Shown: positions 31,430-64,000 of the stretch, in pieces
Layout of the letters: each line of letters starts with the position of its first letter
How positions within the stretch are numbered: position 1 is the first letter of the stretch
Assembly (NCBI GenBank): GCA_052327205.1
Contig: CM126223.1
Location: 68,138,001 to 68,202,000 of the forward strand
Length of the DNA stretch: 64,000 nucleotides
Source of the DNA: Somniosus microcephalus
Lineage: Eukaryota
Direction of reading: 5' to 3'
Program-made: the position numbers and the translations under genes
The notes under the pieces: generated by a model
Database searches by the model: none
What the model was told of the DNA's origin: nothing
Seen by the model: the letters and a program-made list of their open reading frames with translations, nothing else

Positions 31430-31846
31430 TGTTTTTTTTATTCGCTCTGGGATCTGGGCGTCACTGGCAAGGCCAGCATTTATTGCCCATCCCCAATTGC
31501 CCTTGAGAAGGTGGTGGTGAGCCGCTGCCTTGAACCACTGCAGTCCATGTGGTAAAAGTACTCCCACAGTGCTGTTAGGGAGGGAGTTCCAGGATTTTGA
31601 CCCAGCAACGATGAAGGTACAGCGATATACTTCCAAGTCACGATCATGTGTGACTTAGAGGGGAACTTGCAGGTTCCCATGCGCCTGCTGCCCTTGTCCT
31701 TCTAGGTGGAAGAGGTCACGGGTTTGGGAGGTGCTGCCAAAGAAACCTTGGCGAGTTGCTGCAGTGCATCTTGTAGATGGTACACACTGCAGCCACGGTG
31801 CGCCGGTGGTGGAGGGAGTGAATGTTTAAGGTGGTGGATGGGGTTG
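31430..31846 (-). mobile_element. Crack/Daphne-like LINE 3' fragment
   Basis: Reverse complement of ~2605-3020. Confidence 0.85.
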
Positions 31847-38167: not shown

Positions 38168-40826
38168 GGGATAGAAATTGCGGTCGGAGGCGTACCTCCG
38201 GAGTAGGCCTCCAACCTGTGAAACGAATCCGAAATTACCTGCTGGGGTCCAGGCTGGAAGGGTTCCGGTCTCGGGCCTCCAGGCGGACAGCAGCGTTAAG
38301 GCCCAGGAATCCCAAAGATCCCAGGGGTGCAGGCGGTTCGTGGGATCACGTGGGCCCGGTCCTCCAATGATAAAGGAGAATTCCATTGCAATAATTTACA
38401 AAGGGAATCTCCTAATGATATGCAATCGAATCCCCAAATAATTATACAATGCACAGAATTCTAATAATAGAATTACAATTTTATTCATAAGTCACTTCAT
38501 TGCACCAACCTCAATAAAAATTTAAATTTTTGATAAATAATTTCAAACATCTTAATCCAGGCCAATATTTGCATAAACTTATTTAAAGTGTATGTGCATC
38601 ATTTTGGATTTTTTAATGTTTTATTTCAGCCTTATAAATACCCTTATGCTGATGAAAGCAGGCCCTACGCCTGATTTTACCAGCCGTAAGAGTTTCACAG
38701 AATCACAGAAACCCCACAGTGCAGATAGAGGCCATTTCGGCCCATCGAGCCTGCACCGACACAGTTTCGTGGGCAATTGCTGGGCAGTTGCTGGACAAAT
38801 AGCCCCACTCTGCGCCAGCAATACTCATTTTTCAGGCAGTTCGGACCTTGACAGATCACAAGTTCCGGATTTCAGGTATGTGCTTGCGGGGCCTTTGCAA
38901 TAGAAACATAGAAACATAGAAGATAGGAGCAGGAGTAGGCCATTTGGCCCCTCGAGCTTGCTCCGCCATTCAATGAGATCATGGCTAATCATCCAAATTC
39001 AGTACCCTGTCCCTGCTTTCTCCCCATATCCCTTGATCCCTTTAGCCTTAAGAAATATATCTAACTCCTTCTTGAATATATTTAATGAATTGGCCTCGAC
39101 TGCCTTCTGTGGTAGAGAATTGCACAGGTCCACCACTCTTTGGGTGAAGAAATTCCTCCTCATCTCTGTCCTAAATGGCTTACCCCTTATCCTTAGACTG
39201 TGACCCCTGGTTCTGGACTCCCCGCCATCGGGAACATCCTTCCTGCATTGTCTGTCTAGTCCTGCTAGAAATTTATAAGTTTCAATGAGATCCCCTCTCA
39301 TTCTTCTAAACTCCAGCGAGTATGAGCCCAATCGACCTAATCTCTCCTCATACATCATTCCTGCCATCCCAGGTATCAGTCTGGTGAATCTTTGCTGCAC
39401 TCCCTCCATGGCAAGAACATCCTTCCTCAGATAAGGCGACCAAAACTGCACACAATACTCAAGGTGTGGTCTCACCAAGGCCCTGTACAACTGCAGCAAC
39501 ACATCCTTGTTCCTGTACTTGAACCCTCTCGCTACGAAGGCCAACATACCATTCGCCTTCTTAACCGCCTGCTGCACCTGCATGCTTACCTTCAGCGACT
39601 GGTGCACAAGGACACCCAGGTCTCTTTGCACTTCCTCTTCTCCCAATCTATTGCCATTCAGATAATAATCTGCCTTCCTGTTTTTGCCACCAAAGTGGAT
39701 AACCTCGCATTTATCCACATTATACTGCATCTGCCATGCATCTGCCCAATCACCGAACCTGTCCAAATCATACTGGAGTTTCTTGGCATCCTCCTCACAG
39801 CACACACGCCCACCCAGCTTTGTGTCGTCTGCAAACTTGGAGATATTACATCTAGTTCCCTCGTCTAGATCATTAATATATATTGTGAATAGCTGGGGTC
39901 CTAGGACTGATCCCTGCGGTACCCCACTAGTCACTGCCCACCACTCGGAAAAAGACCCGTTTATTCCAACTCTTTGCTTCCTGTCTGCCAATAGGTTAGT
40001 CAAGCACGATTTACCTTTTGTAAATCCATGTTGACTTTGTCCGATCCTGTCACTGTTTTCCAAGTGCTCTGCTATTACATCTTTTATAATGGACTCTAGC
40101 ATTTTCCCCACTACCGATGTCAGGCTTACCGGTCTATAATTCACCGTTTTCACTCTGCCACCTTTTTTGAATAGTGGGGTAACATTAGCTACCCTCCAAT
40201 CCATGGGTACTGTTCCAGAGTCTATAGAATTTTGGAAGATGACCAGCAATGCATCTACTATTTTAGGGCCACTTCCTTAAGTACCATAGGATGTAGATTA
40301 TCAGGCCCTGGGGATTTATCGGCCTTCAATCCCGTCAATTTCCCTAACACCATTTCCCTACAAATAGTGATTTCTTTCAGTTCCTCCCTCTCATTAGACC
40401 TTATGTTCCCTGACATCTCAGAGGTTATTTGTGTCCTCCTTTGTGAAGACAGAACCAAAGTATGTATTTAATTTGTCTGCCATTTCTTTGTTCCCCATTA
40501 TAAATTCCCCTGATTCTGACTGCATGGTACCTACGCTTGACTTCACCAATCTTTTTCTCTTCACATATCTATAGAAGCTTTTTCAGTCAGTTTTTATGTT
40601 CCCTGCAAGCTTACTCTTATACTCTATTTTCCCCCTCTTAATTAATCGCTTTGTCCTACTTTGTTGAATCCTAAATTGCTCCCAATCCTCAGGTTTGCTG
40701 CTTTTTCTGGCCAATTTATATGTCCTCTCTTTGGATCTTATGCTATCCCTAATTTCCCTTGTTAGCCACGGATTACCACAGCTTACTCTGAGGTTACGCC
40801 GTCACGGAGACCACAATTTCAGGGCC
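38168..40826. mobile_element. Harbinger-type MITE (inverted relative of 30071-30814) interrupted by CR1 insertions
   Basis: GGGATAGAAATTG start, ...CAATTTCAGGGCC end, flanks ATC/ATT. Contains a small CR1 tail at ~38696-38760 and the CR1 at 38901-40771. Confidence 0.8.
38901..40771 (-). mobile_element. 5'-truncated CR1 (HER1-type) LINE with RT
   Basis: ORF 38999..40249 has YRPVSLTS, GVPQGSVLGP and KFADD. (TAGAAACA)n tail. Near-identical to 48148-50140. Confidence 0.93.
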
Positions 40827-40839
40827 ATTATTAGGGTTT

Positions 40840-43090
40840 AATTTATCCATACCCCTTATAATCTTAAACATCTCAGTGGACCACCCCGAGCCTTCTTTTC
40901 TTCTCCGTAAACATACCCAATTACTAAAGCCTCTCCTCATAGCTCAGGTGCCTAATCCAAGGCATCTATTTAGTTTCTCTTCACGATAACTTTTACAATG
41001 CCTGCATGTTCCCACTTAACTCAGAAACCAGAATTGTATACAGTGCTCTAGATGGGCCAGATTATACAACTTCATTACTCCTTCCTAGGATTCATACTCC
41101 ATTCCTCTGGCTATACATCAGATCGTTTTTGCTGAATTTTACAGATGCTGTACATAGTCATTACCACCTGTCACCTATCTAACTCTGGCCACTAACAGCG
41201 CTCCATGGCAGCTCCTTGATTGGGAAGAATTTTCTCAGACACTCCCTCCTCCTAATGTTAGGACATTACAGCATGACATCATTCCGTATGTGCCACCATC
41301 ATAATGATGTCATTCATTTTGTTGCACTGGATCTTTGGTACGTGTGCAGTTGCTTTGCACAAAGGGAGACTTAAGTTGCAAACTCAGTGTAAATGGGTGA
41401 AAGAGGTGCTCTCAGGCTGTTGTCCCAGGACCCAGCCTGTAATATAAAAGGACTTTAATATCCACGTAAAAAGCTTCCCCTTTCTGTGCCTTCCTAACTT
41501 GTAGACTAATTTCCTATGTGGCAATACATCAAAAGCTTTGCTAAATTCTGTAGATATAACTTCCACCGTTCTCCTTCTCTATCAGTTCTATTATTTCTTT
41601 GAAGAACTCCAATACATTTGTCAGTTCTGACCTCCCGCCCATACAGCCGAATTTAATGGCAGGACCTGATTAGCATTTTTTGTCTCCGTTTTCTGGCCGC
41701 AGAGGCTGGCTGGCTGTCGGGCGGGTAGACCTTTGGCACCAGGCCGCAGTTGGGGAATGGAGAGGAAGGAGGGATCGGAGGCCTCGTGGAGGAGATCGAA
41801 AGAGTCGGTGGAAGATCAGAAGAATCGGGGGTGGGGGGGGGAGATTGCAAGGGTCATGGAGGAGATCGGAACGGTCGATGGAGGGCGATCGGAAGGTTCG
41901 GTGGGGTGTGAATGAAGCAGGCAAACTGGATCCATCAGGTAAGTGGAAAGGCACTTACCTCCTGGGTCCAGTAGTCCTCACCTCCCTTTAACCACCGGGT
42001 TTCCCAAGGCCCGGAAAACTCGGCCAGCTGGGGTTAAATTTAAAATGGTGGTTAAATATAAGTCATGCAGCCTCATTATAATATTTAAATTACCTACCCG
42101 CCTCCTGGGAGCAGGTTGGTTGCCCACTCCCGTCCCACCTCCGTTAAAACCGATAGTGGGCGTGTTGGAGGCGGGTTGGGTCGGGAGTCAGATTTTTAAC
42201 ATTTTGACATCCCAACCAACCCAAACCTGCCTGTTTTTGGGGGTTAAAATTCCCTCTTATCGGTTCATCAGTTTGTAGTCCCTAGGGTTATCTTATTGGC
42301 TTTATAATTCTTTAGTACCATTCCCTTTCCCAATAAGTTGCTGAAGATATCCACCAGGATGTGGCCTGTTTCATTCGATGCTACATCATTAATTACTGTA
42401 TTCAAACCAGGTGCCTTGACCTCTTATAGAATCATAGAATGTTATAGCACAGAAACAGGCCATTTGGCCCATGAAGTCTGTGCCACTGTTTCTATCCATG
42501 AGTCACCTAGTCTAATGCCCAGTTTGCTGCCCATACTCTTCTATATTCCTCTTTTTCAAGCAACTAATTCCCTTTAAAAAGAATTTATGGACTATACTTG
42601 ACCATCAGTTTGTAGCAGAGAATTCATTTAATGCCCTTAGCCTGTCCATAGCTGCTTTATTTATAATTGCCATCATTCTTAATATTTACTTATTTTGCCC
42701 TGGGAATTCTACCACAGTAATCAAGTACAACCATGGCTTCCTTCATCAACACAAAGAAGTCATTTATATCGTCCATCTCTTTGTCACTTGATATTTGTCA
42801 TCCTTGGGATTGCTCAGGGTCCTACTATTTCCTCAACCTCTACTTCAAATATTTTATAAACACCTTTCACATTGTTTTTTATATTCTCTGTGATCTTCAC
42901 CTCTTTATTTTAGCTTTCCTGACCAGTTTCTTAACCTCTTTAACTTTATTCTTATTTTGATCTCTGTCCTTGATTGTACCCACGGATTTATACTTGAGGA
43001 AAAATCTTTTTTATAACGTCCTCATCCCCCCATATGATTTCACTTGTGACCCACTTCCTCTGTTGCAATTCTTTCCCAGCGGTGTACGGT
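40840..43090 (-). mobile_element. Highly decayed CR1 ORF2, interrupted by a MITE fragment and a short CR1 tail
   Basis: EFSKAFDVLPHRKLVYKL (41384..41566) and other degenerate RT-like segments. Confidence 0.65.
41650..42257. mobile_element. Harbinger-type MITE fragment
   Basis: GC-rich interior ending ggggttaaaattccctc, similar to the 18935 end. Left end is missing. Confidence 0.6.
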
Positions 43091-43517
43091 TACTTAGTTC
43101 ATTTTGTAAAGTTGCATGCAGTGATAATGGGGAGACCGGGGGTGGGTGAGGGTAGGGGGGGTGGGGGGTGGTTAAATCCTTAAATTCACAAACCTGACCC
43201 CCAACCTGTTGCGAACGCGCCTGTTTCCGTTTTAACCGCGGTGGATATCGGGGCGACTCTGTAGCTCGTTCTGGAGAGGCGGGTCCATCAGTGTAATATT
43301 TAAATGGGGCCCATTCCCTGAGAGTTTGGCAGCAATTTGAAATTAGCGCCTCCTGCACGGGTTTCCCGGGGTTTGGGAAACTCGTCAGTGAAACAGAGGT
43401 GAGATTAAGCGGCACTTCGTGGGGATGGTTAAAGGTCAGGAGTCCCGATCTGAATAAAGGCTCAGTGCTCACAGCTGCTTTCTCAGGTTCCTCTGAGCAA
43501 TGGGTTTAGTGAGAGTA

Positions 43518-43831
43518 CAGGTTGAGCATCCAAAATCCAGAGTTCCGGAATCCAGGATGTTCCGGAATCCAGACTCCGGGACGATTGGTGGCAGGGTCGT
43601 CCGGAATCCGTAAAATGTTCCGGAATCCGGACACCCTGTCAAACCGCAACCTGGGCCCAGGCATTTCCGGGCTCGGAACGTGTTTCTGATGTCCGAACTC
43701 TGGAAACGCCCAAGCCCAGGTTGCGGTATTTCCGGACTTCGGACATCAGAAACACGTTCCGAAGTCTGGAAAAACACGAAAACTGGCTTGGCCTCGGTCC
43801 CGAGGTTGCCGGATTCAGGACACTCAACCTG
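43518..43831. mobile_element. Tigger-like MITE nested in the Harbinger relic
   Basis: TIRs CAGGTTGAGCATCC / CAGGTTGAGTGTCC, TA TSD, internal TCCGGAA repeats. Confidence 0.88.
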
Positions 43832-43903
43832 TACTTGTTGTGAGAGACTCATTTGTACAGTTTGTAGGTGTTACAGTTTGTAAAGTTTGCAGAGAACATC
43901 AGG

Positions 43904-44175
43904 ATGGGTGGCACCATGGCTGCTTTAGATTGGACTTCGGATGAGGAAGACAATCAGCACCATCAGCAGTAAGGGCGTGCTGTGTAGGTGGACGATAGAG
44001 AGGGAAGCAACAGAGGAGTCGAGTTTGCAGGAGGCACTACCCACTTAACAGGCTTTACAGACAGAGGCTCAGCTTCCTTGACCTCGCGGAAGAGCAGTGC
44101 CTCCGAAGGCTGAGATTGTCACGTTAGAAGGGCGCAGACATCTACAGCCTCCTAGAAGAAAACCTCCTACCTCTC
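43904..44175 (+). pseudogene. Harbinger transposase (HARBI1-like) N-terminal fragment
   Basis: RRHYPLNRLYRQRLSFLDLAEEQCLRRLRLSR*KGADIYSLLEENLLP. Confidence 0.75.
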
Positions 44176-44539
44176 TGCAGGATAGAAGCTTGGAGCAGAT
44201 CAATGACGTCTTGTAAGGCCACAGCTAATGTATCTGTGTGATGGCCCTGGAGGAGAGAAGAGGTGGTTTATGATTTAGTCATGGGAGTAAAAAATGTTGA
44301 AATTCGCATGATTAAGGTGATCCTGTTTCATTCGGTGCTGAAATCAAGTCAACATGACTTAGTCTTGTACCAGATGTGGGTCAGAGATATTTAATGCTGT
44401 CACCATGCAGCAGTGTCTCCCCAAGTCTCAAATTGCTGCCAAACTCTCAGGGAATGGGCCCCATTTAAATAATACACTGATGGACCTGCCTCTCCAGAAC
44501 AAGCTACAGAGTCTCCCCATTTCCGATGCTTAGGGACGC

Positions 44540-45206
44540 TGACATCCTGCAGGGCCTCCTGCTCTGCAAATGTTAACTGGACAATCTCGTGATGGCCCAC
44601 CTCCGGTCCTCTCCCTCTCGCTTGCATTTTGCGCTCTCTTCTGCAAGGGGGCACAACAGACCTATGAGTGTCTGTATCCGGTGAGGGTGACTATCAGGCA
44701 CATGCATCACGAGTGGCACTGGCATGCATTTGAGGACTTGTGCTGAGAATCAGGTGAGCTGACTGAGGTGGTATCACATTACATAAGGATTGGAGGTGGA
44801 TGGAGAAAGGAGGAGGTGAAGAAATGCATTGAAATGGAACGGTGGGTTGCTGCTGATACATAAGTGACTGTGAGGAGTGACGTGATGAGACGGAATACGC
44901 TTGACAAGACAGAGAGTGAGGGCGGGGGGCACTACAGGATGTAGGTAAATCTGCAACTGTGCTCACCTTTCCTAATCTGGTTAGGTCATTAAACCGCTTC
45001 CTGCACTGAATCCAGGTACTGAGCACTACAATCTCGCTGTTGACCTCTTCAGCCACCTCTCACCATGTGACCTTCATCACAGCAGCAGATTTTTTCTTGC
45101 CCTTACTGGGGAATGGAACCTCCTGCCCCACCCTTACTGCACCCAGTAATACATCAAGGGGCACCTCATTGAACTGGGATGCAGCCTGTGCCCTTCCTGA
45201 CTCCAT
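44540..45206 (-). pseudogene. Harbinger Myb/SANT-like DNA-binding protein gene, two exons
   Basis: Exon 1 MESGRAQAASQF...W*EVAEEVNS...TWIQCRKRFNDLTR ends at a gtgagc donor (~44967). Exon 2 follows cccttgcag (~44641) and reads KRAQNASERERTGGGP. Confidence 0.8.
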
Positions 45207-45553
45207 CTCAAAATACTTCTCTCTCCTCCAATGCTCCCAACTCCTCCAAATTCCATCTGTGCATTGGCCCTTTAAATAGCCAAATTGAAATCACGTCATG
45301 TGGGTGCGCAGCACACCCATTCACGTGCATTGGAGATGCAAAACCCGGAAAATGAGAATGAGGCATCCCTGTTGAAATCGAACATTCCCACACTCCTCCA
45401 CGTTTGGTGCCCGCTGTCACACCACCCCTCCCACCGCCCCCCCCCGGCTCAGATCCCGCCTCTGCGTTAATATTGACCACAATGAATTAAACTGTACGGG
45501 AAATATTCAATCAGGCCCACTAATAGTAGCATTAACAATAATAGTAATATTAT

Positions 45554-47605: not shown

Positions 47606-48245
47606 GTAATCAGGAGCACAAGCTCTAACTGAGTTTTCCCCTTCCCAGTCTGGAGGCTCTGAGCTTAATTTTAGGCCTCCTACTAATACTCAGCCCGACA
47701 TCAGTTAACTTAGCAAAGACACAACTCTCCGAATGCTGATTAGGAAAGAATGTCACAAAGAGATTAATAAAACACTCCTCTGAATCTCTGCAGGTGGTGC
47801 TGTTTGCTTACCGACTTGCATTTCCCACTTATACTACCCACTGGCGTATAACATCTTCCAACACTACAGCTACTGATCTAATGGGCTTTAACAATACCAA
47901 TTCGCAGAATGAGAAAGTTATCGATTATCTTATGATACCAGGCACAATTAGAAAGAGCAATCCTAATGTTTATGCTGAGCAGACGTTAAAATGGCACAGG
48001 TTATACAGCAGCAGGGGGTATAATTGGCAGTGTGTAAAGAAAAGTTATTTTATAACAGTAAGGCGGTTTAGACATTTTATTTATCTTTATACACAGAGCA
48101 AATATTCACAAACTGTCAGAGTAAACATGTATCACAGACACTGCTCTTAGAAACATAGAAACATAGAAGATAGGAGCAGGAGTAGGCCATTCGGCCCCTC
48201 GAGCCTGCTCCGCCATTCAGTGAGATCATGGCTGATCATCCAAAC

Positions 48246-51028
48246 TCAGTACCCTGTCCCTGCTTTCTCCCCATATCCCTTGATCCCTTTAGCCTTAAGA
48301 AATATATCTAACTCCTTCTTGAATATATTTAATAAGTTGGCCTCAACTGCCTTCTGTGGTAGAGAATTCCACAGGTTCACCACTCTCTGGGTGAAGAAAT
48401 TCCTCCTCATCTCTGTCCTAAATGGCTTACCCCTTATCTTTAGACTGTGACCCCTGGTTCTCGACTCCCCCGCCATCGGGAACATCCTTCCTGCATCTAG
48501 TCTGTCTAGTCCTGTTAGAATTTGATAAGTTTCAATGAGATCCCCTCTCATTCTTCTAAACTCCAGCGAGTATAAGCCCAATCGACCCAATCTCTCCTCA
48601 TACGTCATTCCTGCCATCCCAGGTATCAGTCTGGTGAATCTTCGCTGTACTCCCTCCATGGCAAGAACATCCTTCCTCAGATAAGGCGACCAAAACTGCA
48701 CACAATACTCAAGGTGTGGTCTCACTAAGGCCCTGTACAACTGCAGAAACACATCCTTGTTCCTGTACTCGAACCCTCTCGCTACGAAGGCCAACATACC
48801 ATTTGCCTTCTTAACCGCCAGCTGCACCTGCATGCTTACCTTCAGCGACTGGTGCACAAGGACAACCAGGTCTCGTTGCACTTCCCCTTCTCCCAATCTA
48901 TTGCCGTTCAGATAATAATCTGCCTTCCTGTTTTTGCCACCAAAGTGGATAACCTCGCATTTATCCACATTATACTGCATCTGCCATGCATCTGCCCAAT
49001 CACCCAACCTGTCCAAATCATACTGGAGTTTCTCGGCATCCTCCTCACAGCACACACGCCCACCCAGCTTTGTGTCATCTGCAAACTTGGAGATATTACA
49101 TCTAGTTCCCTCATCTAGATCATTAATATATATTGTGAATAGCTGGGGTCCTAGGACCGATCCCTGCGGCACCCCACTAGTCACTGCCTGCCACTCGGAA
49201 AAAGACCCATTTATTCCAACTCTTTGCTTCCTGTCTGCCAACCAGTTCTCTATCCAAGTCAGTACCTTACCCCCAATCCCATGTGCTTTAACTTTACATA
49301 CTAATCTCTTATGCGGGACCTTGTCAAAAACCTTCTGAAAGTCCAAATACACATCCACTGGTTCTCCCTTATCTATTCTACCAGTTACATCCTCAAAAAA
49401 TTCCAGTAGATTAGTCAAACATGATTTACCTTTTGTAAATCCATGTTGACTTTGTCCACTCCTGTCACTGTTTTCCAAGTGCTCTGCTATTACATCTTTT
49501 ATAATGGACTCTAGCCTCTACCACCTTTTTTGAGTAGTGAGGTAACATTAGCTACCCTCCAATCCATGGGAACTGTTCCAGAGTCTATCGAATTTTGGAA
49601 GATGACCAGCAATGCATCTACTATTTCTAGGGCCACTTCCTTAAGTACCCTAGGATGTAGATTATCAGGCCCTGGGGATTTATCGGCCTTCAATCCCGTC
49701 AATTTCCCTAACACCATTTCCCTACAAATACTGATTTCATTCAGTTCCTCCCTCTCATTAGCCCCTATGTTCCCCGACATCTCTGGGAGGTTATTTATGT
49801 CTTCCTTTGTGAAGACAGAACCAAAGTATGTATTTAATTGGTCTGCCATTTCTTTGTTCCCCATTATAAATTCCTCTGATTCTGACTGCAAGGGACCTAC
49901 TCTTGACTTCACCAATCTTTTTCTTTTTACATATCTATAGAAGCTTTTACAGTCAGTTTTTATGTTCCCTGAAAGCTTACTCTCATACTCTATTTTCCCC
50001 CTCTTAATTAATCCCTTTGTCCTCCTTTGCTGAAACCTAAACTGCTCCCAATCCTCAGGTTTGCTGCTTTTTCTGGCCAATTTAAATGTCCTCTCCTTGG
50101 ATCTTATGCTATCCCTAATTTCCCTTGTTAGCCACGGTTGAGTCACCTTTTTTGTTTTATTTTTATGCCAAACAGGGATGAACAAATTCTGTAGTTCATC
50201 CATGTGATCTTTAAATGTTTGCCATTGCCTATCCACCGTCAACCCTTTAAGTAACATTCCCCAATCCATCCTACCCAACTCATGCCTCATACCATCGTAG
50301 TTTCCTTTATTTAAATTCAGGACCCTAGTCTCTGAGTCAAATACCTCACTCTCCATCTTAATGAAGAATTCTATCATATTATTATCACTCCGCCCCAAGG
50401 GGCCTTGCACAACAAGATTGCTAATTATTCCTTTCTCATTACATAATACCCAGTCTAAGATGGCCTGATCTCTAGTTGGTTCCTCGACATATTGGTCCAG
50501 GAATTCCTCCTCCACAGTATTGTTACTAATTTGGTTAGCCCAAACTATATGTAGATTAAAGTCACCCATGATAACTGCTGTTCCCTTATTGCACGCATCT
50601 CTAATTTCCCGTTTAATGCCATCCCCAACCTCCGCATTACTGTTTGGGGGTCTGTATACAACTCCCACTAATGTTTTCTGCCCCTTGGTATTTCTCAGCT
50701 CTACCCATACAGATTCCACATTATCAGAGCTAATATCCTTCCTTACAATTGTGTTAATTTCTTCTTTAACCAGCAATGCTACCCCACCTCCTTTTCCTTT
50801 TTACCTGTCTTTCCTGAATATTGAATACCCCTGGATGTTGAGTTCCCAGCCTTGGCCACCCTGGAGCCATGTTTCCGTAATCCCAATCATATCATATCTG
50901 TTTACATCTATTTGCGCAGCTAATTCACCCACCTCATTACGAATGCTCCTCGCATTAAGACACAAAGCCTTCAGGCTTGTTTTTTTAACACTCTTAGACC
51001 TTTTAGAATTATTATTTACTGTGGCCAT
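48246..51028 (-). pseudogene. CR1 ORF2 (AP endonuclease and reverse transcriptase), frameshifted
   Basis: CLNARSI, ITETWL, VYRPP, MGDFN, LDWVL, FQKVFDKVPH and FADD across ORFs 50801..51028, 49511..50776 and 48246..49478. Confidence 0.93.
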
Positions 51029-52102: not shown

Positions 52103-54464
52103 GACTTACCCTTTAATTAATTCAAATTAAATTAGTAAATTAGTAAATTCTTTTCCTCCCATTTATGCTTTTTATCTTCCTTCCTTTTCAGGTCTTTCCC
52201 TATCACATCCCAGTCCCCGTCTGAAAGGATGGGCACAAGACTTGCTCCCAGGTCTGTGTTTCTATTGCTCTTCGGATGGATGTTTGGTGATGTATTAGAG
52301 TGGCTCATGGGGGGAAGGCAGCTTTACCCAGCAGTTTTCCTTCTTTCTTGAGGTAAATCTTCTCACCTCCACTCGTGACTTTTCCTGGTTGAGGGCAAGG
52401 AATCACAAGCCAGCATGCTCTCAAAACAGTAGAAAGCACTTTTTTTTTTAAATGGCCAAATCAAACCTAAGACAAACTTGAGCAAGTCTTGTTGACTTAC
52501 ACCAATTTCAAAAACACATACCAGCGAAAAGAAAAACACTTTAGCCTTTGAAGAAGAACCCTCTGGTTTTGAATGCTTGTCTGTACGATAGATATGTTAG
52601 TCTAACAAAAGCTGGCATTAACATATGCTATGAGGGGTTTAAAGAAAGGTAGTAAAATAACTTATAAGGTGAAAATAATATACTATATCTGTGGGCAAGA
52701 AAAATCATTGTAGCATTTGGAATTGTCAATTGTAGTTTTTTTATTTTGCCAATTCAAACTGATGTGATTCAGGTTATCACTTATTATACCGATTAAAGGA
52801 ACTTATACTTATAAAAATGTATCCTAAGAACAATAAACCGTATATATATATAAAAAATCAACTTAAAAATATATTGACACAATATCACTCCTCTCCAATC
52901 TCTACAAGTTATGTTGTGAAGTTACCAAGGGCTGCACCTCACAGAAAAATGCATGCTCCTGTAAAAGATTCACAGATTACAGGATCTGAATTCATAACAG
53001 GATTTAAAACAAAGGCTTATGTATTTAAAACAGATGATAAGAAGAGCTATGGTGCTGAATGTCTGGTTGCTGTTGTTCAGCGCTATCAAATGAGAAGACA
53101 CACGTTCAGTCTCCTGCCGCGCTCAATTCTTCATGTCAGCCACGCTGAGCAAAGGGAGTGAAAATTGTGTGGGTACTTTTTGCCTCCTTGTGGCAGGCTA
53201 AAGGGGGTATAGTTAAAAGTCTGGGAGTGGACTACCCATCTGCCTTCACAGCAACAGAGGCATGGGGCGAAGTGGGCAATTTGCTGAAGTGAAAAAAATT
53301 ACAGGAAAAAGCAGATAGTAGATACAACATAGCTATGGTTGTGGAATGATGAATGATCTGTTATCTGGACTACATTTTCCAAAACACTTGATAGAGGACT
53401 GTGGGGTTGAGGGGGGGGGGAATCAATGCAATCTCAAGCTTCTTAAAAAGATTAAGCACTGTGATTTAAAGTGTTTTTAATACACCCTGTTTAATGATAG
53501 AAAATGCTAAAGAATTTTTGAGTAATTTCACCTTGTTGAACTATTGTGCTTCATGCATGGGTAAAATGCTTATTCTCATTTTCTTTGACAGTGTCATCTT
53601 CTAGTCTGTACGTAATTGTACTGTGGGTGTTTATAGTTGATCTCCCCGGAAGGCTGACAAATCTTGTAATCATGTTGTAATGCTAATGTTCTTCATATCA
53701 GCTCTTCTACAGAATTAGTATTCTTTTGCTAAAGATTATTTTTAATCACTACAACCTGACCCATTGTGAGAGTGTGTCATTGATTTAATACAAAATTGGT
53801 TTCCTGGCAGATTTGCAATGAACTTAACTATACTGTCAGTAAATCAGGGCAAGGAATTCTCTGACTAATCATTAGAAGAAGTTCATTTTTAATCTCGCAT
53901 CTCTACTTCTGTGCTTTAAGTTTAATAGGTGCCATCCAGTATGAAAATGTATGGATTTGTTTTCAAATTAATTTATACTTTGTATGCTCCCTGCTACAAT
54001 TTATTACAGGGCCATTAAGTTCGCTCCAAATCCTTCAGAAATCCAACAAAATTGATTGATATTATATTGCACCTAAATGGTACTTAACAGCAACGACAGT
54101 CTACTACCATTATATAACACAGTCCTTAGGAGACATGCAATCTGTGCGTTATAATGTGGTGAGTGAATGTCCTCAAACATGGCATGAAATTTAAATGAAG
54201 ATACCTGAGACCCAAGTCCATTAGTTATAACCGAGATAGGCTTGTATTGGAGAGCCTTATAATGAGGATGTATTTTCAAAAGCTACACACCATTATAAAC
54301 CCTGTATATTATGCTTGAAATATCCTATCATTAGACAATGTCCTTTTCTGGTCCAACTTAGGTCATTTTTTTGTTGGAACGTTAAGAAGCCATTGGATCT
54401 TTACCATCATTCATCGTCTTGACCACGTTTACTAGCACCACTTAAAGTTCTACAGTTTTTTAAA

Positions 54465-54870
54465 TTAATTCATGGGATGTGGGCGTCTCTGGCAAGGCCA
54501 GTATTTATTGCCCATCCCTAGTTGCCCTTGAGAAGGTGGTGGTGAGCCGCTGCCTTGAACCGCTGCAGTCCCTGTGGTGAAGGTACTCCCACAGTGCTGT
54601 TAGCGAGGGAGTTCCAGGATTTTGACCCAGCGACGATGAAGGATGAAGGCAATATATTTCCAAGTCAGGATGGTGTGTGACTTGGAGGGGAACTTGGAGG
54701 TGGTGGTGTTCCCATGCACCTGCTGCCCTTGTCCTTCTAGGTGGAAGAGGTCGCAGGTTTGGGAGGTGCTGCCGAAGAAGCCTTGGCGAGTAGCTGCAGT
54801 GCATCTTGTAGATGGTATACACTGCAGCCACGGTATGCTGGTGGTGGAGGGAGTGAATGTTTAAGGTGGC
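54465..54870 (-). mobile_element. Crack/Daphne-like LINE 3' fragment
   Basis: Reverse complement of ~2610-3005; 5'-truncated at ttaaggtgg. Confidence 0.88.
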
Positions 54871-55825
54871 CCTATGAGAGTATATAGAACTGTAAAATAT
54901 TTTTTTACTGTATTCATTTAGAAGAAAAGGGTCGTTGTTAATCTATATTGATGACTCTGAAGTATCATTTCTTGAAATATGTCTCCATTTTATCTGAATA
55001 TAATTGTGAACATTATTATTCTACAGGATAATTTCTCACCCATCAATAGTAAGAATTATATATATATATATATATTCATTTTCTAATTTGTGGCCTTGTG
55101 CATTAATTTACAAAATTCTATGATACATGTGTTATAAGTTCTGTATTAAGTCTGATACTGTATCTAGTATTTTTCATTTAAGTACTTTGGTTAAATGATA
55201 TAGGGAGCAATTTATTTCATTAATATAAAAGTTACATTACAACAGTGACTACACTCCAAAAGTACTTCATTGGCTGTAAAGCGCGTTGAGACGTCCGGTG
55301 GTCGTGAAAGGCGCTATAAAAATGCAAGTCTTTCTTTTTTCTTTGTACAATTTGGGTTTTAAGTTATCTTCTGTATATTCACAAAGCTTTGATTTTGGAA
55401 AGTTGCATTTAATTAGACTAAGGTACATCACTTGTTGCTGGTTGGCCAGAAAAGATTGACCATGAGGTGCACATATAATTATGTTAATTCAAACTAATTT
55501 GTTATAAACTTTAAGATGTAGTTATTAAATTTTATTTTAAATATTAACATCTGCCTTGTCCCTAGGCCTTGTTTGTGTTTTTATTAATATTGCATTAAGT
55601 TATTTTATACATGAGACATCTTGCTAATTCCAATTAGATAAAAATAAATGACCACAATCTAGTGGGATTTGTAGATTATTCTGTGGTGTGATAATATTGA
55701 AATTGGAACCACCTTTCCAACTAACGTATTCGGGCACTTTTTTGTTTGCAGAGCTAACTCAAGGCTTGTAGAGGAATTGAAGAGAAAGTGCCTTTTTCTC
55801 TTCTGTAAAACGTTTGATTGTTAAT
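54757..55825 (+). repeat. Left arm (probable donor) of a ~1 kb inverted duplication
   Basis: Reverse complement matches 57570-57869 plus 62650-63412, including the LINE/unique junction ttaaggtggccctatgagag. Confidence 0.92.
55231..55343 (+). mobile_element. SacSINE1-like 3' tail, present only in the left arm
   Basis: tacattacaacagtgactacact...aatgcaagtctttc. The right arm reads straight through at ~62820. Confidence 0.85.
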
Positions 55826-56334
55826 TTGTCCATACATTCTGTATGTGTTCACGAAGCAAAATAGTAATGTACTCTTCACGGCTCATGCAGTGGTAGAATA
55901 TTGGAGAACCAATGTACTAGGCCAGAGGATGCTGTGCTGTGACTTCATGCCTTTGAGCAGCTGAACTCCTAGCCTCAGCCAGGCAGCTATGGGAGATAGC
56001 AAGCAGAGACCAGAGCCACCAGACAAATCTCCAAAGGAACAGGGCATGGGCATAGGGACAACCAGCAGCAGATTCATCACTTGGTCACCATTGCATCTTT
56101 CCTACCTGTCAGTTCAAAATGACATTGGATGAAACCTGGGAGTAGACTACCTGCTTAGGTCACAAATACAATTGATTTAATTTGTGTTTCTTTGTCACAG
56201 TTTCCATTATACTTTTTAATCTTGGCCCCAATTCCAGAGGAAAATAAAACATTTTGAAAGAGATGTAAAACGTTCTGTCATTGCTTACACTTAAAATCAC
56301 ACAGAGAATTGTTAGCTAATTCGAGCTTCAATGT

Positions 56335-56730
56335 TCCCATGATGGCTCAGTGAGTTTACAAACCAGCATGGGCCTGGTTTTGATCTTTGGTCTATGCCGC
56401 AGTTAGCTAACCTAACCCAGGGGTGCTAAGGTAAACTGTTTCCTCCCTTCTACTGCCCCAAACAGGTGAATGATTAACCAGTTCTCATTAATGGAGTTTG
56501 TAAATTTTATCTGCCAAGGGTCCAGCTCCTGATCGCCATCCACGGACTGTTTTCAGACATGCACGTGTGTAGACATTGGATGAGGACACCATTGAGCTCA
56601 GCTGTAATTCCCAATAGCCTGCTGACACTTGCTGTCAAGGCTCACATATGACGATTGGGTGAGGTACCCAATGGTGACTGGTGAAACGATACTTCAGCGA
56701 GGAGTCAACACCTTCAGGATAGATGAGGAA
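56335..56730 (+). mobile_element. Old SINE-like repeat (second family)
   Basis: gatggctcagtgagt head; aatagcctgctgacact...ggagtcaacaccttcagga is the reverse complement of motifs at 3.96-4.08 kb and 46.96-47.05 kb. Confidence 0.55.
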
Positions 56731-57475
56731 AAAAATTGATGAGGAAAAAGATTATGGTTGTAAAAAGCTGGTGGAAAGTAGATTCATTTCAGAAATGGGT
56801 ACCAAAGGTTTGAGATGGATTTGCAGTACAAAGCAACACAGCCCAGAGTCTAGAACGACTATAATGCTGAATCTTAAGTGTGTATTAATGAAGCATGACA
56901 TAAGTTTCTGATCTTTGTAATAAGTACATGTTATACTTCATCAGCTGTTCTTTTCTGACAGCTCGTAATGACCCAGGCATATCATTTCTAATGGTGCTTG
57001 GGAGACCCTGACACTTTTCATGCTCAAAATCTTTATGATTATGTAATAAACATTTTACATCTTTAATGGTCTCCCCATTTACTGTGCAATTTGTTCCTAG
57101 ATAAATGAATAAAGTAATTTGCTCCACCATATTGCTGTCAATTTTAATGTTAAATGGATTCTGTTATGTTGCTTCCACCATGATTTAAATACAGAATACA
57201 TTTACTAGTTTCTATTCAGAAGTCATCAGTATTACCATTGAGTAACACTGTCCATGGTCTGAGATTATTAACCAATCAATCATGAATTTTGTGTTATATG
57301 GTGATTCTCTTGTTATGTGCTGGTACTTATGAACATTAGGCACTAATCTCAGATAGATTAGTGCTGGAAAACATTGGATAAATACTCCAAGAGATAATCT
57401 GTTATGGGGTGCCAGGTCGATTGTGTTACAGTTGACATCTTGACTCAGTGGTAGCACCCTTGCTTCAGAATCAGA

Positions 57476-57569
57476 GGCCGCGATTTCCCCTACCTCGATG
57501 GGTCCGTGGTGGGCGACGTTGGTGGCGTGTCCCAGCCTCGCTGCTGTCTCCAGCCCGCTGTCCAAAATG
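57476..57569 (+). mobile_element. Putative 5' terminus of a Harbinger element, following a SINE head fragment (57435-57475)
   Basis: Starts GGCCGCGATTTCCCC, fitting the GGSNNNRAWWTT terminal pattern of the MITEs here. Abruptly CpG-rich in AT-rich surroundings. Confidence 0.5.
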
Positions 57570-57869
57570 ATTAACAATCAAACGTTTTACAGAAGAGAAA
57601 AAGGCACTTTCTTATCAATTCTTCTACAAGTCTTGAGTTAGCACTGCCAACAAAAAAGTGGCCAAATACATTAGTTGGAAAGGTGGTTCCAATTTCAATA
57701 TTTTCACACCACAGAATAATTTACAAATCCCACTAGATTGTTTTTAACTAATTGGAATTAGCAAGATATCTCGTGTATAAAATAACTTCATGCAATATTA
57801 ATAAAAACACAAACAAGGCCTAGGGACAAGGCAGATGTTAATATTTAAAATAAAATTTAATAACTGCAC

Positions 57870-60800
57870 TGTGATAAATCCATGTAGTGAGACAAGGAAC
57901 TCAAAGAGGCGAGGTATTAGGATTAATACGAGTACTTTATTAAACGACTGCGAAACAACCAGGCAGGCCTGCATCCAGGCATTGCACCTTTGCTGACCTT
58001 GGCAGGAAGCCACCCCTGACCTTAACAGGAAACAAACCCGTTGACCTTAACAGGAAGCAAACCCCTGACTTTAGCAGCAGCATTGGCTACAGCACCACCT
58101 GGTGGATAACCTTAATCATAACATCCCAGATTACTATATCCCTCCCCCCTTAAGATTTCAGTATGAATTTCTTAACAAACAACTATTCCTAAGGGTCACA
58201 TAAGAAGTCTCCATTCACCATGTTTAAAACTTGACGAATCTAACAGGTCAGTATCAATCTCTCTGGTGGCTTGCCAGCCCTTTGTGAATGTCTGACAGTA
58301 AAGTCCCTGCTTGTTTGTGGTGAAACCACCAGCTGCTCCTGAGCAGTGCTCGGAGTATCTGACTCTGCAACGATGGTTTCCTCTTGACGAATGGGTTCCT
58401 GTGGAATTGTCTCCGTCCCTGGTGGTGGCACCACAGATGCACTTGGATAACTGGGGGCAAACCTGTCCTCAGCCATTGCATCTGGAACCTTCATTTCAAT
58501 TTCCCCTTGTCTGGTAAGTATCTGATCTACATGCCTGCGTACTACCCTACCATCACCCAACATGACCTTGTATGATACGGGACCGGTCATTGAGTCTATG
58601 AAGCCAGGAATTCACTTGGGTCCATAACTGAAATTCCTGGTAAGGACCGCATCTCCTTCTCCAAAACTTCGGCTCTTTGTTCTTTAGTCATGGTTCTCTT
58701 TTTGATTGTTTTGTCTGTTTTCCATTTTCCTTTTTAGGTCTGGGTGGACAAGGTCAAGAGTGGAGCGTAGTCTACGCCCTAATAACATCTCAGCAGGAGA
58801 GAGTCCTGTGGTGGATTGAGGTGTTATTCTGTAGCTGAACAGAACCCGTGACACTTTGGCTGCTAAACTCCCTTCTGCACTTTTTTTCATCATCTCTTTA
58901 AATGTTTGTACAGCTCTCTCCGCAAGTCCATTTGAGGACGGATGATATGGAGCCGAGGTCACCTGCACTATGCCATTTTTTCTCAAGAACTCTTTTGTCT
59001 CTGTACTCACAAAACAAGTGGCATTATCACTTACCACGATCTCCAGTAGCCCTTGATTACTGAAGCTCTGACGCAGGCAGTCTATAGTAGTAGTGGCGGA
59101 AGCAGAATTTACAGGATAAACATCCATCCATTTGGAATGTGCATCAATGATTATGAGGAACATCTTCCCCATGAATGGACCCACATAATCTAAGTGCAAT
59201 CTTCTCCATGGTTTATCCGGCCACTCCCAGGGGTGGAGAGGAGCCGCTGCTGGTGCCTTCCGGTGTTCCTGACAAGTGCTGCATGTCTTGACTAGATTTT
59301 CTATCTCCTCATCTAGCTTTGGCCACCACAAGTAACTCCTAGCCAAGGCTTTCATACACGAGACCCCAGGATGACACTGATGTAGTTGCTCTAGGATAGA
59401 TTGTCGTGCTGGCTGTGGAATAATCACTCGTGCTCCCCACAACACGCAACCATCCTGCACACTCAGCTCTGTTTTCCTGACACTGTAGGGTGTGAAGTCA
59501 GCCCCTTCCGGATGCTGTGGCCATCCCCTCACCACATATTCTCGAACTCTAGACAGTACTGGATCTTTACCTGTCCATGTTCTTACTTGCTCTGCAGTCA
59601 CAAGTTCCGTGTCAGTGTCCTCTAACATCAACACTCTGTCCTCTGGAGCTGCACGGATAGGTGTGCCTGGCAGTGGAAGACGGCTCAAGGCATCTGCGTT
59701 CCCATGGTACTTGCCCGCCTTGTAGACGATGACATACTCATATGCCCTCAACGTCACAGCCCACCTCTGGATCCGGGGTGACACCATCTGTGGAACTGCT
59801 TTCATTTTGTTGAAAAGAGAGAGAAGAGGTTTATGATCAGTGCATATGGTGAACTTCCTGCCATATATGTACTTGTGGAACGTCTGTAACCCAAACATTA
59901 CTGCTAACCCCTCTTTGTCTAACTGGGAATAGTTTTTTCCGCTGGTGTTGGAGTTCAGGACATAAACCCTATTGGCCTTTCAGTTCCATCTTCCATGCAG
60001 CGTGAAAGAACTGCCCCCACCCCATAAGGTGAAGCGTCACAAGAGAGAATGATGTCTTTCTCTGCATTGTAGTGAACCAGCACATCCGACGACAGCATCA
60101 GTTTCTTGGACTGTTCAAATGAAACCCCCTGCTCCTCTCCCCACTGCCACTGTATCTCCTTGCGCAGTAGTTTGTGAAGAGGTGCTAACACAGTTGACAA
60201 GTTTGGTAAAAACCTGTTATAATAGTTCAGCAGTCCCAGGTAAGCTTTTAACTCAGCCACATTTGTAGGAGCAGGGGCATCCTGCAGTGCTTGTACCTTC
60301 TCCTTGAGTGGATGGAGCCCGGTGGCATCCACTCTGTGTCCCAGGAACACTGCCTCATTCCCCAGGAAAGTGCACTTACTCCTCTTGAGCCGGAACCCTG
60401 CCCTCTCCAATCTCTGTAGTACCTCGCTCAGAGTGCTCAGATGCTCCTGGTCGGTTCTTCCCGTCACCAGAATGTCATCCAGATAGATGGAAACATGTGG
60501 AATCCCTTGCAGTACGCCTTTGATTGTCCTCTGGAAGATAGCTGGACTAGATGAGACACCAAACGGTAAGCGGTTATATGTAAACAAGCCCTTGTGTGTA
60601 TTTATGGTGACATACTTCTTTGATTCGTCATCCAGTGTAATCTGCAAGTAGGCATGACTCATATCCAACTTTGTGAATTTCTTTCCTCCAGCCAGGTTTG
60701 CAAAGAGATCCTCTGTTTTGGGAATAGGATACTGCTCTAGTTTGGACACCCGATTGACTGTCAATTTATAGTCTCCACAGAGTCTTACCGAATTGTCCGG

Positions 60801-62644
60801 TTTTAAAACAGGTACTATGGGAGCTGTCCATTCCGAACATTTCACTGGCTCCAGTATGTTCTCTCTCAATAGACGGTCAAGCTCAGCCTCTACCTTTGGC
60901 TTCATGACATAAGGCACAGGTCGTTGTTTAAAAAACCTTGGCGGTGCCTCCTTTTCTACATAAATCTTAGCTGGGGGGCCATTAAATGTGCCAAGTTCCT
61001 CCTTGAACACATTCTCATGTTCACGCAACACTTCTTGCAAAGTCAACTGTTTGCCCGCATCTATTTGATGTACTGCTCCCCAGTCTAATTTAAGTTCTTT
61101 TATCCAGCCCCGACCTAACAGGTTTGGTCCGGTATCCGATACTATAACTACAGGTAGCTGTTCCACTGTGTCCCTGTGTTGCACAGTTACCTTAGCTGTA
61201 CCTAATGTCGCTACTCGTTCACCTGTATATGTTTTAAGATGCAGGGAGCAAGGCTTTAACTCTGGAACTTTTGCACGGTTCCACAATTTTGAGTACTCTG
61301 CCTTGTTCATTATGGTCACGCCACACCCTGTATCCACTTCAAAGTTCACCTTAGAGTCATTTACTGTCAGTTGCAATGTGATAGGAGCCACTTTTGGAAT
61401 GTTCTCTAACATGCTATACATTATGAACATGTCCTCTTCTTCCTCAGCTTCCCCGCTGATGTAGTGTGCTCCATGTTTTTTCACTTCTCTTCCTTGGTTT
61501 TGCTTTCCTCCCCCTTTTGGTTTGGATTCCTCCACAGGTGATTTTGTCCTGCATGCTCATTTTATGTGTCCTTGTTTCCCACACTTGTGGTACTTTTCCT
61601 CCAGAAACCGGCATTCACTCACCAGGTGATCGCCCTTGCATCTATAACATGCCTTCACATGCTCACGTTGTGGTTTCTGATGCATGTTTAACTTGTGCAC
61701 AACAACCTGACCTGCAACTTGCTTAGCATTAGCCCTGTCTGAACCCTGTATTTCTTTTACATCTCGGTTCGCTGTCTCTATGGCTTGAGCAAGTTCCAAT
61801 GCTTTTTCATAAGTAAGCCCAGTCTCGGATAATAATCTACGCTGCATTCAGTCATCCATTATTCTGCAAACTAGCCTATCTCGCAGCATTTCCTTCAGGT
61901 TGTTCCCATAATTGCAATCTTGTGCTAATTTACGCAACACCGCTACATAGTCCATTACGCTCTCTTCCTCTTTTCTGTTCCTTGAATTAAACTTGAACCG
62001 CTGTACAATCTCACTAGGCTTAGGGTTGAAATGTTCTTTTAGCAAGGCCACTAATTCAACAAATGATTTGTCTCCAGGCTTTTCAGGGCTGAGCAGATTC
62101 CTCATCAAACTGTAGGTCTGGCTTCCCACTGAACTAAGCAGAATGGCTTTCCTTTTTCCGGCATCATTTATTTAATTTGCTTCGAAGAAATAACCCAACA
62201 CCTCACAGTATTCCTCCCAGGTTTGTGCTTGAATATCAAAAGCGGAGACCGTTCCTACCGTGGCAGCCATGCTCTCTTCCAACTGGTAGCTAACTTTAGC
62301 TTGTGATTTTGTTGTTTAAGCATCCTGGCAGACTTCTCTTCTTTATTCAGGGTCCTGTTTTACCTCGTCGCCAAGTGTGATAAATCCATGTAGTGAGACA
62401 AGGAACTCGAAGAGGCGAGGTATTAGGATTAATACAAGTACTTTATTAAATGACTGCGAAACAACCAGGCAGGCCTGCATCCAGGCATTGCACCTTTGCT
62501 GACCTTGGCAGGAAGCCACCCCTGACCTTAACAGGAAGCAAACCCGCTGACCTTAACAGGAAGCAAACCCCTGACCTTAGCAGCAGCATTGGCTACAGCA
62601 CCACCTGGTGGATAACCTTAATCATAACATCCCAGATTACCATA
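57870..62644 (-). mobile_element. Full-length Gypsy (Mag-like) LTR retrotransposon
   Basis: 269-bp LTRs at 57870-58138 and 62376-62644 with 7 transitions by manual count, TSD TGCAC. PBS TGGCGACGAGG (tRNA-Ser(GCU)) and PPT AAGGGGGGAGGGA. Confidence 0.96.
58240..62270 (-). pseudogene. Disrupted gag-pol (Gag, PR, RT, RNase H, integrase)
   Basis: MAATVGTVSAFD..TWEEY, CYRCKGDH, FEVDTGCG, YLDDILVTG, CDASPYGVGAVL, H..HPG..CSTC, LHLDY, SDNATCF and NGLAERAV, with several stops and frameshifts. Confidence 0.95.
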
Positions 62645-63412
62645 TGCACCTTAAAATGTATAACAAATTCGTTTGAATTAACATAATTATATGTGCAACT
62701 CATGGTCAATCTCTTCTGGCCAACCAGCAACAAGTGATGTACCTCAGTCTAATCAAATATAGTACAACCTTCCAAAATTGTGAATACCGTATACAGAAGG
62801 TAACTTAAAACCCAAATTGTACTTTTACATGAATGAAATAAATTGCTCCATATATCATTTAACCAAAGTACTTAAATGAAAAATACTAGATATCAGACTT
62901 AGTACAGAACTTATAACACATGTATTGTAGAATTTTGTAAATTAATGCACAAGGCCACAAATTAGAAAATGAATATATATATATATATATAAACCTTACT
63001 ATTGATGGGTGAGAAATTATCCTGCCGAATAATAAAGTTTACAATTATATTCAGATAAAATGGAGACATATTTTAAAACAATAGGTATAATGATTAATTA
63101 CACAAGACATAAATGGTTTCCATACAACATAGGAAACGAATGTTTCTAAATATAAACTTTTTAAGTTGGAAAGTTCTTTTCCACCAATCTACAGGAAGTG
63201 ATACTTCAGAGTCATCAATATAGATTAATAATGACCCATTTCTTTCTTCTAAATGAATACAGTAAAAAAATATTTTACAGTTCTATATACTCTCATAGGG
63301 CCACCTTAAACATTCATTCCCTCCACCACTGGCGCACCGTGGCTGCAGTGTGTACCATCTACAAGATGCACTGCAGCAACTCGCCAAGGCTTCTTCGGCA
63401 GCACCTCCCAAA

Positions 63413-64000
63413 AACCTCATATGCTTATGGAGGGAGTCACAGCACGCAGGGAGGTTCTCTTCCCTTCCAATGGGCGGAAGAGGCTTCTCCAGGATATCAA
63501 TGCAGCCTGGTTGCACATTGCACAGGAGGGCACAAGCAGGGATGTCATCAGGAGGACCAGGCTGCAGTGGCGCAAACCTTTCAATGATCTCAGTAGATCA
63601 CAAAACGTTACTGCAAAGCCACACTCAACCTCATCCTGCTGTGCCACTCATCACATCCCCATCCCTACCCTGCTCCTGCACATCCTTACTCACACCAAGT
63701 TACCTTGCACCTCCACCCATCCCTCTCTACATTATCACTTCCCCATCTCACTAGCCACCCCTCACACTCACCCTCATCCTAGCCAAATCATAACAACGAA
63801 CAATACACAAGAGTAGGCACTTGGGTGTTTTATGCAAACTTCATGTAAAGTTTCTGTTAATGTGGTGTCAAACATTGAAACCTTTATTTTCAGCACTTCT
63901 TGGACAGATCTGTGTGCACCTTTGGAAGTGGCTTAGTGAGTTGCAGTGAATGGTGAGACGTAACAGTACCCCCACCCCCACAATGGTGATCAGTGTGAAA
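63413..64000 (+). mobile_element. Harbinger Myb/SANT gene fragment (5'-truncated) and downstream intron-like sequence, running off the window
   Basis: ORF 63421.. MLMEGVTARREVLFPSNGRKR...AWLHIAQE...RRTRLQWRKPFNDL, homologous to the Myb exon at 45.0-45.2 kb. Confidence 0.8.

Follow-up and report, generated by a model that had tools for sequence, protein, structure and literature searches.

How did a kilobase of neighbouring DNA come to lie, in inverted orientation, inside a Harbinger transposon? The question is raised by a locus in a 64,000-nucleotide window of the Somniosus microcephalus genome (G000:C22:68138001-68202000 of a 6.4 Gb assembly; positions called extended carry the window numbering on through the adjoining stretches, L011 and L012). 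Here, an old non-autonomous Harbinger copy has ~234 bp near its left end swapped for an inverted 1.06 kb copy of DNA located 1.7 kb upstream. A preliminary description, made from the sequence alone, had put the locus forward as a candidate Pack-Harbinger, i.e. an element that captured adjacent genomic DNA. We find it to be a single-copy cis Pack-TIR (terminal inverted repeat, TIR) of the Harbinger superfamily, a class that is known already and of which it is a clean but ordinary example. Our preferred reading, to which we assign a probability of about 0.68, is that a break inside the resident element was repaired in place from nearby DNA and that the resulting chimera never moved.

The inverted duplication and its donor

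Positions 54758-55827 are repeated in reverse complement at 57570-63412, around a later Gypsy insertion. Self-BLAST resolved four inverted blocks (54758-54974/63412-63192, 54972-55232/63076-62821, 55345-55518/62822-62647 and 55517-55825/57868-57570) and, together with a global alignment, confirms the inverted repeat of 54757-55825 with a 1.74 kb spacer that had been described previously. The aligned arms differ by 51 substitutions in 930 ungapped columns (5.5%; Kimura two-parameter distance 5.7%), comprising 34 transitions and 17 transversions; outside CpG, 44 of 908 sites differ. The captured DNA lies on the minus strand in two parts, with 57573..57869 corresponding to ~55516-55824 in the global alignment, and 62645..63412 to 54758-55515. 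The single-copy spacer between the arms (55828..57569) includes the head of a short interspersed element (SINE) and the left end of the Harbinger element.

The left copy (54758..55827, plus strand; 31% GC) is the donor, as had been proposed, because its long interspersed element (LINE) fragment continues to 54456 and because the right copy is bordered at both ends by sequence that runs uninterrupted in intact family copies. This 5'-truncated 3' fragment (54456..54869, minus strand) is presumably a LINE, the label resting on the preliminary description rather than on a family search; it is 88-91% identical to 2609-3020 and 31431-31834 by self-BLAST, and its 5'-most 112 bp lie within the donor. 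Each arm holds DNA that the other lacks. A 114-bp SINE-tail insertion (55231..55344, plus strand) is present in the donor and is a gap in the captured copy; it repeats elsewhere in the window, and a contig from another organism (organism B, see below) aligns only from 55345. The insertion likely entered the donor after capture. The second captured part in turn holds 118 bp (63077-63194) now absent from the donor. These are also spanned by a contig of organism A, have no third copy in a genome search, and were likely lost from the donor after capture.

A genome search with 55360-55900 scored 3 of 3 candidates and one with 62830-63300 scored 2 of 2; both found the donor and the right copy and nothing else. 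Because the captured DNA was seen at no third place in the searches run, the chimera shows no sign of movement. No gene was found in the cargo, and Rfam gave no RNA family (0 hits in 54400-64000); donor reading frames are short outside the LINE part. The cargo is most likely neutral.

The host element and its family

The element's left end (57476..57572, plus strand, 97 bp) is, over these 97 bp, 92.8% identical to the family copy L008, and its last 3 bp (ATT) are common with the donor. The remainder (63418..64000, continuing to extended 64830, G000:C22:68202830; plus strand) carries a Myb/SANT relic and then, on the minus strand, remnants of the C- and N-terminal parts of the transposase. In L008, the segment matching 63418 onward begins 234 bp beyond the left-end match. 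We fetched 29 left-end loci (two of which repeat earlier loci), and all 29 run into the Myb segment, with a gap of exactly 234 bp in 13. Hence, a single element has been split into 57476-57572 and the part from 63418 on, in agreement with the earlier assignment of 57476-57569 and the Myb segment to one Harbinger; the L008 match and the 29 loci also led us to reject 57476-57569 as a decayed SINE or a piece of another family. The replaced stretch, first put at ~200 bp and thought to be filled from nearby DNA, is ~234 bp by family comparison, or 13.5% of the element. Both breakpoints are internal, with 86% of the element retained.

The family is ~1.73 kb long and non-autonomous, with 12,667 first-look candidates in the genome and a star-like tree. 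The Myb segment gave a weak but sole hit to PF13873 (Myb_DNA-bind_5; E 7.4e-4 and 19.9 bits, under the 21.7 cut-off; E 4.1e-4 in L008). The element is colinear with elements that bear DDE_Tnp_4: 6 of 6 long-form loci gave matches at 68-80% DNA identity, and 4 of these 6 cover either flank of a ~950-1000 bp gap located at extended ~64160. PF13359 scored above cut-off in L108 and L105, with no hit in two of the four frames scanned. The family is an internal deletion form of the longer DDE_Tnp_4-carrying elements. The top 20 DDE_Tnp_4 loci had been considered as its partner and were rejected as another family, with no DNA or protein match; the partner was later found by pattern. The genome search for DDE_Tnp_4 gave 96,622 first-look candidates, with many 386-aa open frames among the 150 scored, so Harbingers are abundant in this genome and one family apparently young. 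This abundance contrasts with the elephant shark, for which the relevant part of PMC9179366, defining Harbingers by TIR, 3-bp target site duplication (TSD) and two open reading frames (ORFs), reports none.

Counted from the family's putative start position as read by eye, ~25 codons were lost ahead of the Myb segment, rather than the 12-15 estimated before. Of 65 copies, 42 could be parsed and 23 could not; ATT stands at that position in 35 of the 42 and ATG in 1, so the Myb ORF was most likely a relic before capture. Folding of L008 1170-1560 (z -2.68) gives a weak hint of structure in the lost region, and is not used here as evidence. The relic at 45.2-45.5 kb, with which the element had been compared before, belongs to a separate Harbinger relic (43000-45500, with an N-terminal transposase remnant at ~44000-44170 by tblastn) that has no self-BLAST match to 57476-64000.

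Termini, target site and the interrupted SINE

Both family termini are present in the window copy, at 57476 and at extended 64830, ~830 bp past the window. The perfect far TIR that had been expected has no match; instead the subfamily right end, ...AAAAATTCCCCCC, is an imperfect TIR. The subfamily TIR is short (left GGCCGCGATTT vs right GGGGGGAATTT); in L006 the repeat is near-perfect. Among 31 copies anchored automatically at both ends, 9 have an exactly matching 3-bp TSD where ~0.5 would be expected by chance; several of the 31 are mis-anchored or short, and at least four more TSDs match by eye with a one-base shift. Since the amplified subfamily with imperfect TIRs still has 3-bp TSDs, the transposase likely tolerated the mismatch.

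A 3-bp TSD had also been predicted for the window copy. Such TSDs occur in the family; at this copy the TSD cannot be read cleanly, with AGA at the left and, at the right, a 20-bp C tract and then GGA. This C-rich tract (extended 64831-64850) follows directly on the right end and hides the TSD; inspected family copies end after ~six C. The host SINE, whose head lies at 57435..57475 (plus strand), resumes at extended ~64851, after the element's right end, as anticipated, and a second Gypsy (extended 64924-69898) interrupts it once more. In other SINE copies the two halves lie side by side (e.g. window 26010-25975 / 25971-25932, and L049 89-115 / 119-162). The nesting order is SINE, then element, and capture, then Gypsy.

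Junctions and copy number

At the left junction, the element (...CAAAATG-ATT-, followed by TTCCCC in the family) and the donor (...GGACAA-ATT-AACAATC) share a 3-bp microhomology, ATT; microhomology of at least 3 bp arises in 5.4% of random pairings. At the right junction (63413..63417, plus strand) the A-run is two bases longer than that of the donor and is followed by CCT, i.e. donor ...CCTCCCAAA, two extra A, CCT, and then element CATATG, giving an imperfect microhomology of 0 or 3 bp depending on register. Neither junction has a second copy among the 39 other scored hits of its search (of 1,613 and 3,118 candidates). The extra chimera copies that had been named as a sign of movement were therefore not seen: junction and cargo searches found no further copies with their own TSDs, as a multicopy mobile Pack element would have.

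Local capture was also sought in other family members. Nine internal inserts of at least 100 bp occur in 65 copies, none matching unique flanking DNA (~1.5 kb flanks), which amounts to local capture in 0 of 65 in the parts examined. Those of L017 and L037 were searched genome-wide and are dispersed repeats, and that of L025 is a partial tandem copy.

Timing of capture and insertion

At 46-48 of 1,224 non-CpG columns, the window copy departs from the letter that is commonest, column by column, among its 10-20 nearest relatives; its terminal branch is 0.039 in a tree of the 56 of 65 copies with at least 900 aligned columns. If capture had coincided with insertion, ~67 differences would be expected between the arms (corrected for base composition), compared to the 44 observed. 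The resulting ratio of 0.67 (95% range 0.44-1.02; probability of a ratio of at least 1 ~0.03) leans towards capture after insertion, without settling the matter.

Contigs from other organisms were drawn from Logan under coded names, with 8 alignments made from 7 of the 12 listed runs. Runs X11 (organism C) and X12 (organism D) each provide one donor-type and one captured-type contig over 57583-57700, and an X12 contig bridges the SINE-element junction up to 57558. Organism A differs from the window spacer at 52 of 1,692 letters (3.1%). Its contig runs 30 letters into the element, and two contigs of single-copy depth cover part of the duplicated DNA. Across an empty Gypsy site it also carries, at 55516/55519, the derived alleles of the captured copy; there, organism B and the donor have the other alleles in common. 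Organism B is more distant (90 differences in 1,167 letters, 7.7%) and has one contig over 55345-55699. Its spacer contig ceases to fit at 57473 with at least 29 letters left over, suggesting an empty site. Organism A thus appears to hold both element and cargo and organism B neither, placing the insertion and the capture, according to these contigs, between the B and A splits.

One further contig, X12 record 19 of organism D (57671-57865 and 62659-62822), reads as captured-type at either end and as donor-type over the Gypsy site. We dropped the notion of an organism D without the Gypsy, as the points where this contig breaks off and picks up again coincide exactly with donor-type differences, and it has donor alleles. 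The contig is probably a path of the assembly graph via the donor, and possibly a real gene-conversion tract that removed the Gypsy.

Origin of the captured DNA

In the repair we propose, a break at ~57572 within the resident element would be followed by resection exposing the upstream top strand. The left 3' end would then fold back onto its own strand at ATT/AAT (55825-55827), or switch template at a fork, and synthesis of ~1.07 kb leftwards would produce an inverted copy of the upstream DNA with the single-copy spacer as the fold-back loop. The new end would finally be joined to the right side at 63413-63418, with 234 bp lost. Fold-back self-priming fits, since on a resected strand it would be expected to copy an upstream donor in inverted orientation. 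We infer the mechanism from this geometry, and template switching at a fork would yield the same product; the transposase may also have been involved. Fold-back inverted duplications at breaks are known from human (PMC3907307) and yeast (PMC11724301), and in the parts of these sources considered here they share with our locus the single-copy spacer, the short homology at the fold-back point and the loss of little sequence at the break. The human examples are large and arise via dicentric intermediates, whereas the present one is ~1 kb, healed locally and within a transposon.

Several points weigh against repair in place by this route. Yeast fold-back insertions are mostly 5-34 bp, much shorter than the ~1 kb seen here (PMC11724301, in the part cited), the microhomologies are short and the right one is register-dependent. 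The gap of 13.5% exceeds the 4.6% median given in the cited part of PMC8277862, and the first break is just 97 bp from the terminus. A ratio of 1 falls inside the timing range, the branch length sets an upper limit to the element's age, and the arms could have been made more alike by gene conversion. Among organisms A and B, no relative was found with the element and without the cargo, the direct test of Tan et al. Organism A has only one contig at 57590-57729, mostly donor-like, which does not bear out a second copy there, although such a hole is no proof. Neither capture junction is spanned by a listed contig with 31 letters to left and right, organism C may be the assembly's own source, and each genome search scored no more than 40 candidates.

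The foremost alternative holds that the transposase triggered the capture: the element would have been cut out or nicked at a time when the family was still active, and repair of the gap, templated by the sister chromatid, would have re-copied 97 bp on the left and ~1.4 kb on the right, with neighbouring DNA between. Insertion and capture on the same branch, a timing ratio ranging up to 1.02, a first breakpoint near the terminus and the existence of transposase-bearing relatives are all in keeping with this, and a repair scar could account for the 20-bp C tract at the right end. Against it stand the point estimate, which puts capture at about two-thirds of the element's age with a probability of ~0.03 for coincidence or earlier, the 86% of the element kept, and the cargo-free elements present in outgroups for 91 of 97 primate cases (PMC8277862, in the part cited). 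On balance we consider a transposase trigger unlikely. Also unlikely is that the Harbinger transposase triggered capture during a family burst, making this a transposition-dependent yet single-copy Pack-Harbinger with kilobase fold-back geometry in a lineage without catalogued Pack-TIRs. If that were true, a survey of the huge family would show whether upstream-inverted capture is its typical scar.

It is very improbable that the chimera formed elsewhere and then transposed here as a mobile Pack-Harbinger, be it by a local hop: both ends are retained and the family is widely amplified, but the cargo lies only here and at a donor 1.7 kb off, the junctions have no copies, and none of the 65 other family members has a local capture in the parts examined. 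An assembly artefact (false duplication or misjoin), for which the lack of contigs bridging the capture junctions might speak, is most improbable, given arms 5.5% apart that each have their own indels and insertions, donor-type and captured-type contigs in both X11 and X12, the captured-type derived alleles of organism A, and breakpoints cleanly within one element. Alternative-transposition duplication, as in Ac/Ds, was rejected as the breakpoints are internal rather than terminal. Repair in place accordingly remains our preferred account, and the locus is most likely a neutral repair scar.

Relation to known Pack-TIRs

Tan et al. 2021 (PMC8277862) catalogued 370 Pack-TIRs in 100 animal genomes. 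Of 281 unique cases, 56.9% lie within 15 kb of their donor and 67.6% have microhomology (median 2 bp); only four Pack-TIRs are multicopy, and gap filling was judged transposition-independent. The Supplementary Data 1 lists 21 PIF-Harbinger cases, from Xenopus laevis (3), X. tropicalis (4) and alligator (14); by our count from the coordinates, 15 of the 21 lie no more than 15 kb from the donor. The novelty for vertebrate Harbingers suggested by the preliminary description is thus not sustained. The elephant shark, the one cartilaginous fish surveyed, had 0 Pack-TIRs and 0 PIF-Harbinger, and we found no Pack-Harbinger in cartilaginous fish in a literature search by title or abstract start, with most subscription papers outside its scope. 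The repeats of the present assembly resemble those of cartilaginous fish, although none of our conclusions draws on this.

The locus matches the single-copy cis Pack-TIRs of PMC8277862 in being a non-autonomous TIR element with both ends and a gap filled with nearby non-transposable-element DNA, a donor <5 kb away, short microhomology and a single copy. A close counterpart is Harbinger-N54_Gav in alligator, with its donor 1.75 kb away. The cargo lies between two parts of a single TIR element whose termini are both present, and has a unique parental copy at the required identity of at least 90% (94.5% here; only donor and copy found). Its length falls within 100-5000 bp and 80-120% of the parental length (~1.06 vs 1.07 kb, the later Gypsy set aside); with the Gypsy included the cargo is 5.84 kb and the pipeline would miss the locus. 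Furthermore, a transposable element lies within 100 bp of the parental sequence, since the donor begins inside the LINE fragment, and the rules of PMC8277862 would exclude the locus on this count. That filter targets segmental duplication, against which breakpoints inside one element argue. Unlike the 21 PIF-Harbinger rows, the host is 1.73 kb with Myb and transposase remnants, compared to consensus lengths of 260-497 bp, and the cargo is 1.06 kb compared to a longest parental copy of ~0.8 kb, with a later nested Gypsy.

The likeness to mobile plant Pack-MULEs drawn earlier is limited to host DNA lying between the ends of a TIR element, as also in Pack-TYPE elements. Plant Pack-MULEs are often multicopy, carry mostly DNA from other chromosomes and are often transcribed (PMC8277862), whereas here there is one copy, an adjacent donor and no gene found. 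The single-copy in-place class fits, because the cargo has no other genomic copy and the donor is next door. As a single case the locus has little weight, being one further in-place capture with cargo in which no gene was found; its use is as a clean, datable example. The passages of PMC8277862 considered leave capture orientation untreated, and a comparison of donor side and orientation across cis Pack-TIRs could test fold-back self-priming as their origin.

Nested Gypsy elements and other repeats

The element that later entered the captured DNA is a 4.8 kb Gypsy-type long terminal repeat (LTR) retroelement (57870..62644, minus strand), with a 5-bp TSD (TGCAC), LTRs differing at 7 of 270 positions, and Pfam matches to protease, reverse transcriptase, RNase H and integrase. 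Two more Gypsy-type elements lie past the window, at extended 64924-69898 and 69963-74987, in opposite orientations and ~78% alike. The former, with LTRs 97.8% alike, is the one that splits the SINE again, so that one SINE hosts the Harbinger, the capture and nested Gypsies. Elsewhere in the window, two LINE pieces 9 kb apart (38901-40771 and 48148-50137) are 88-96% alike by self-BLAST.

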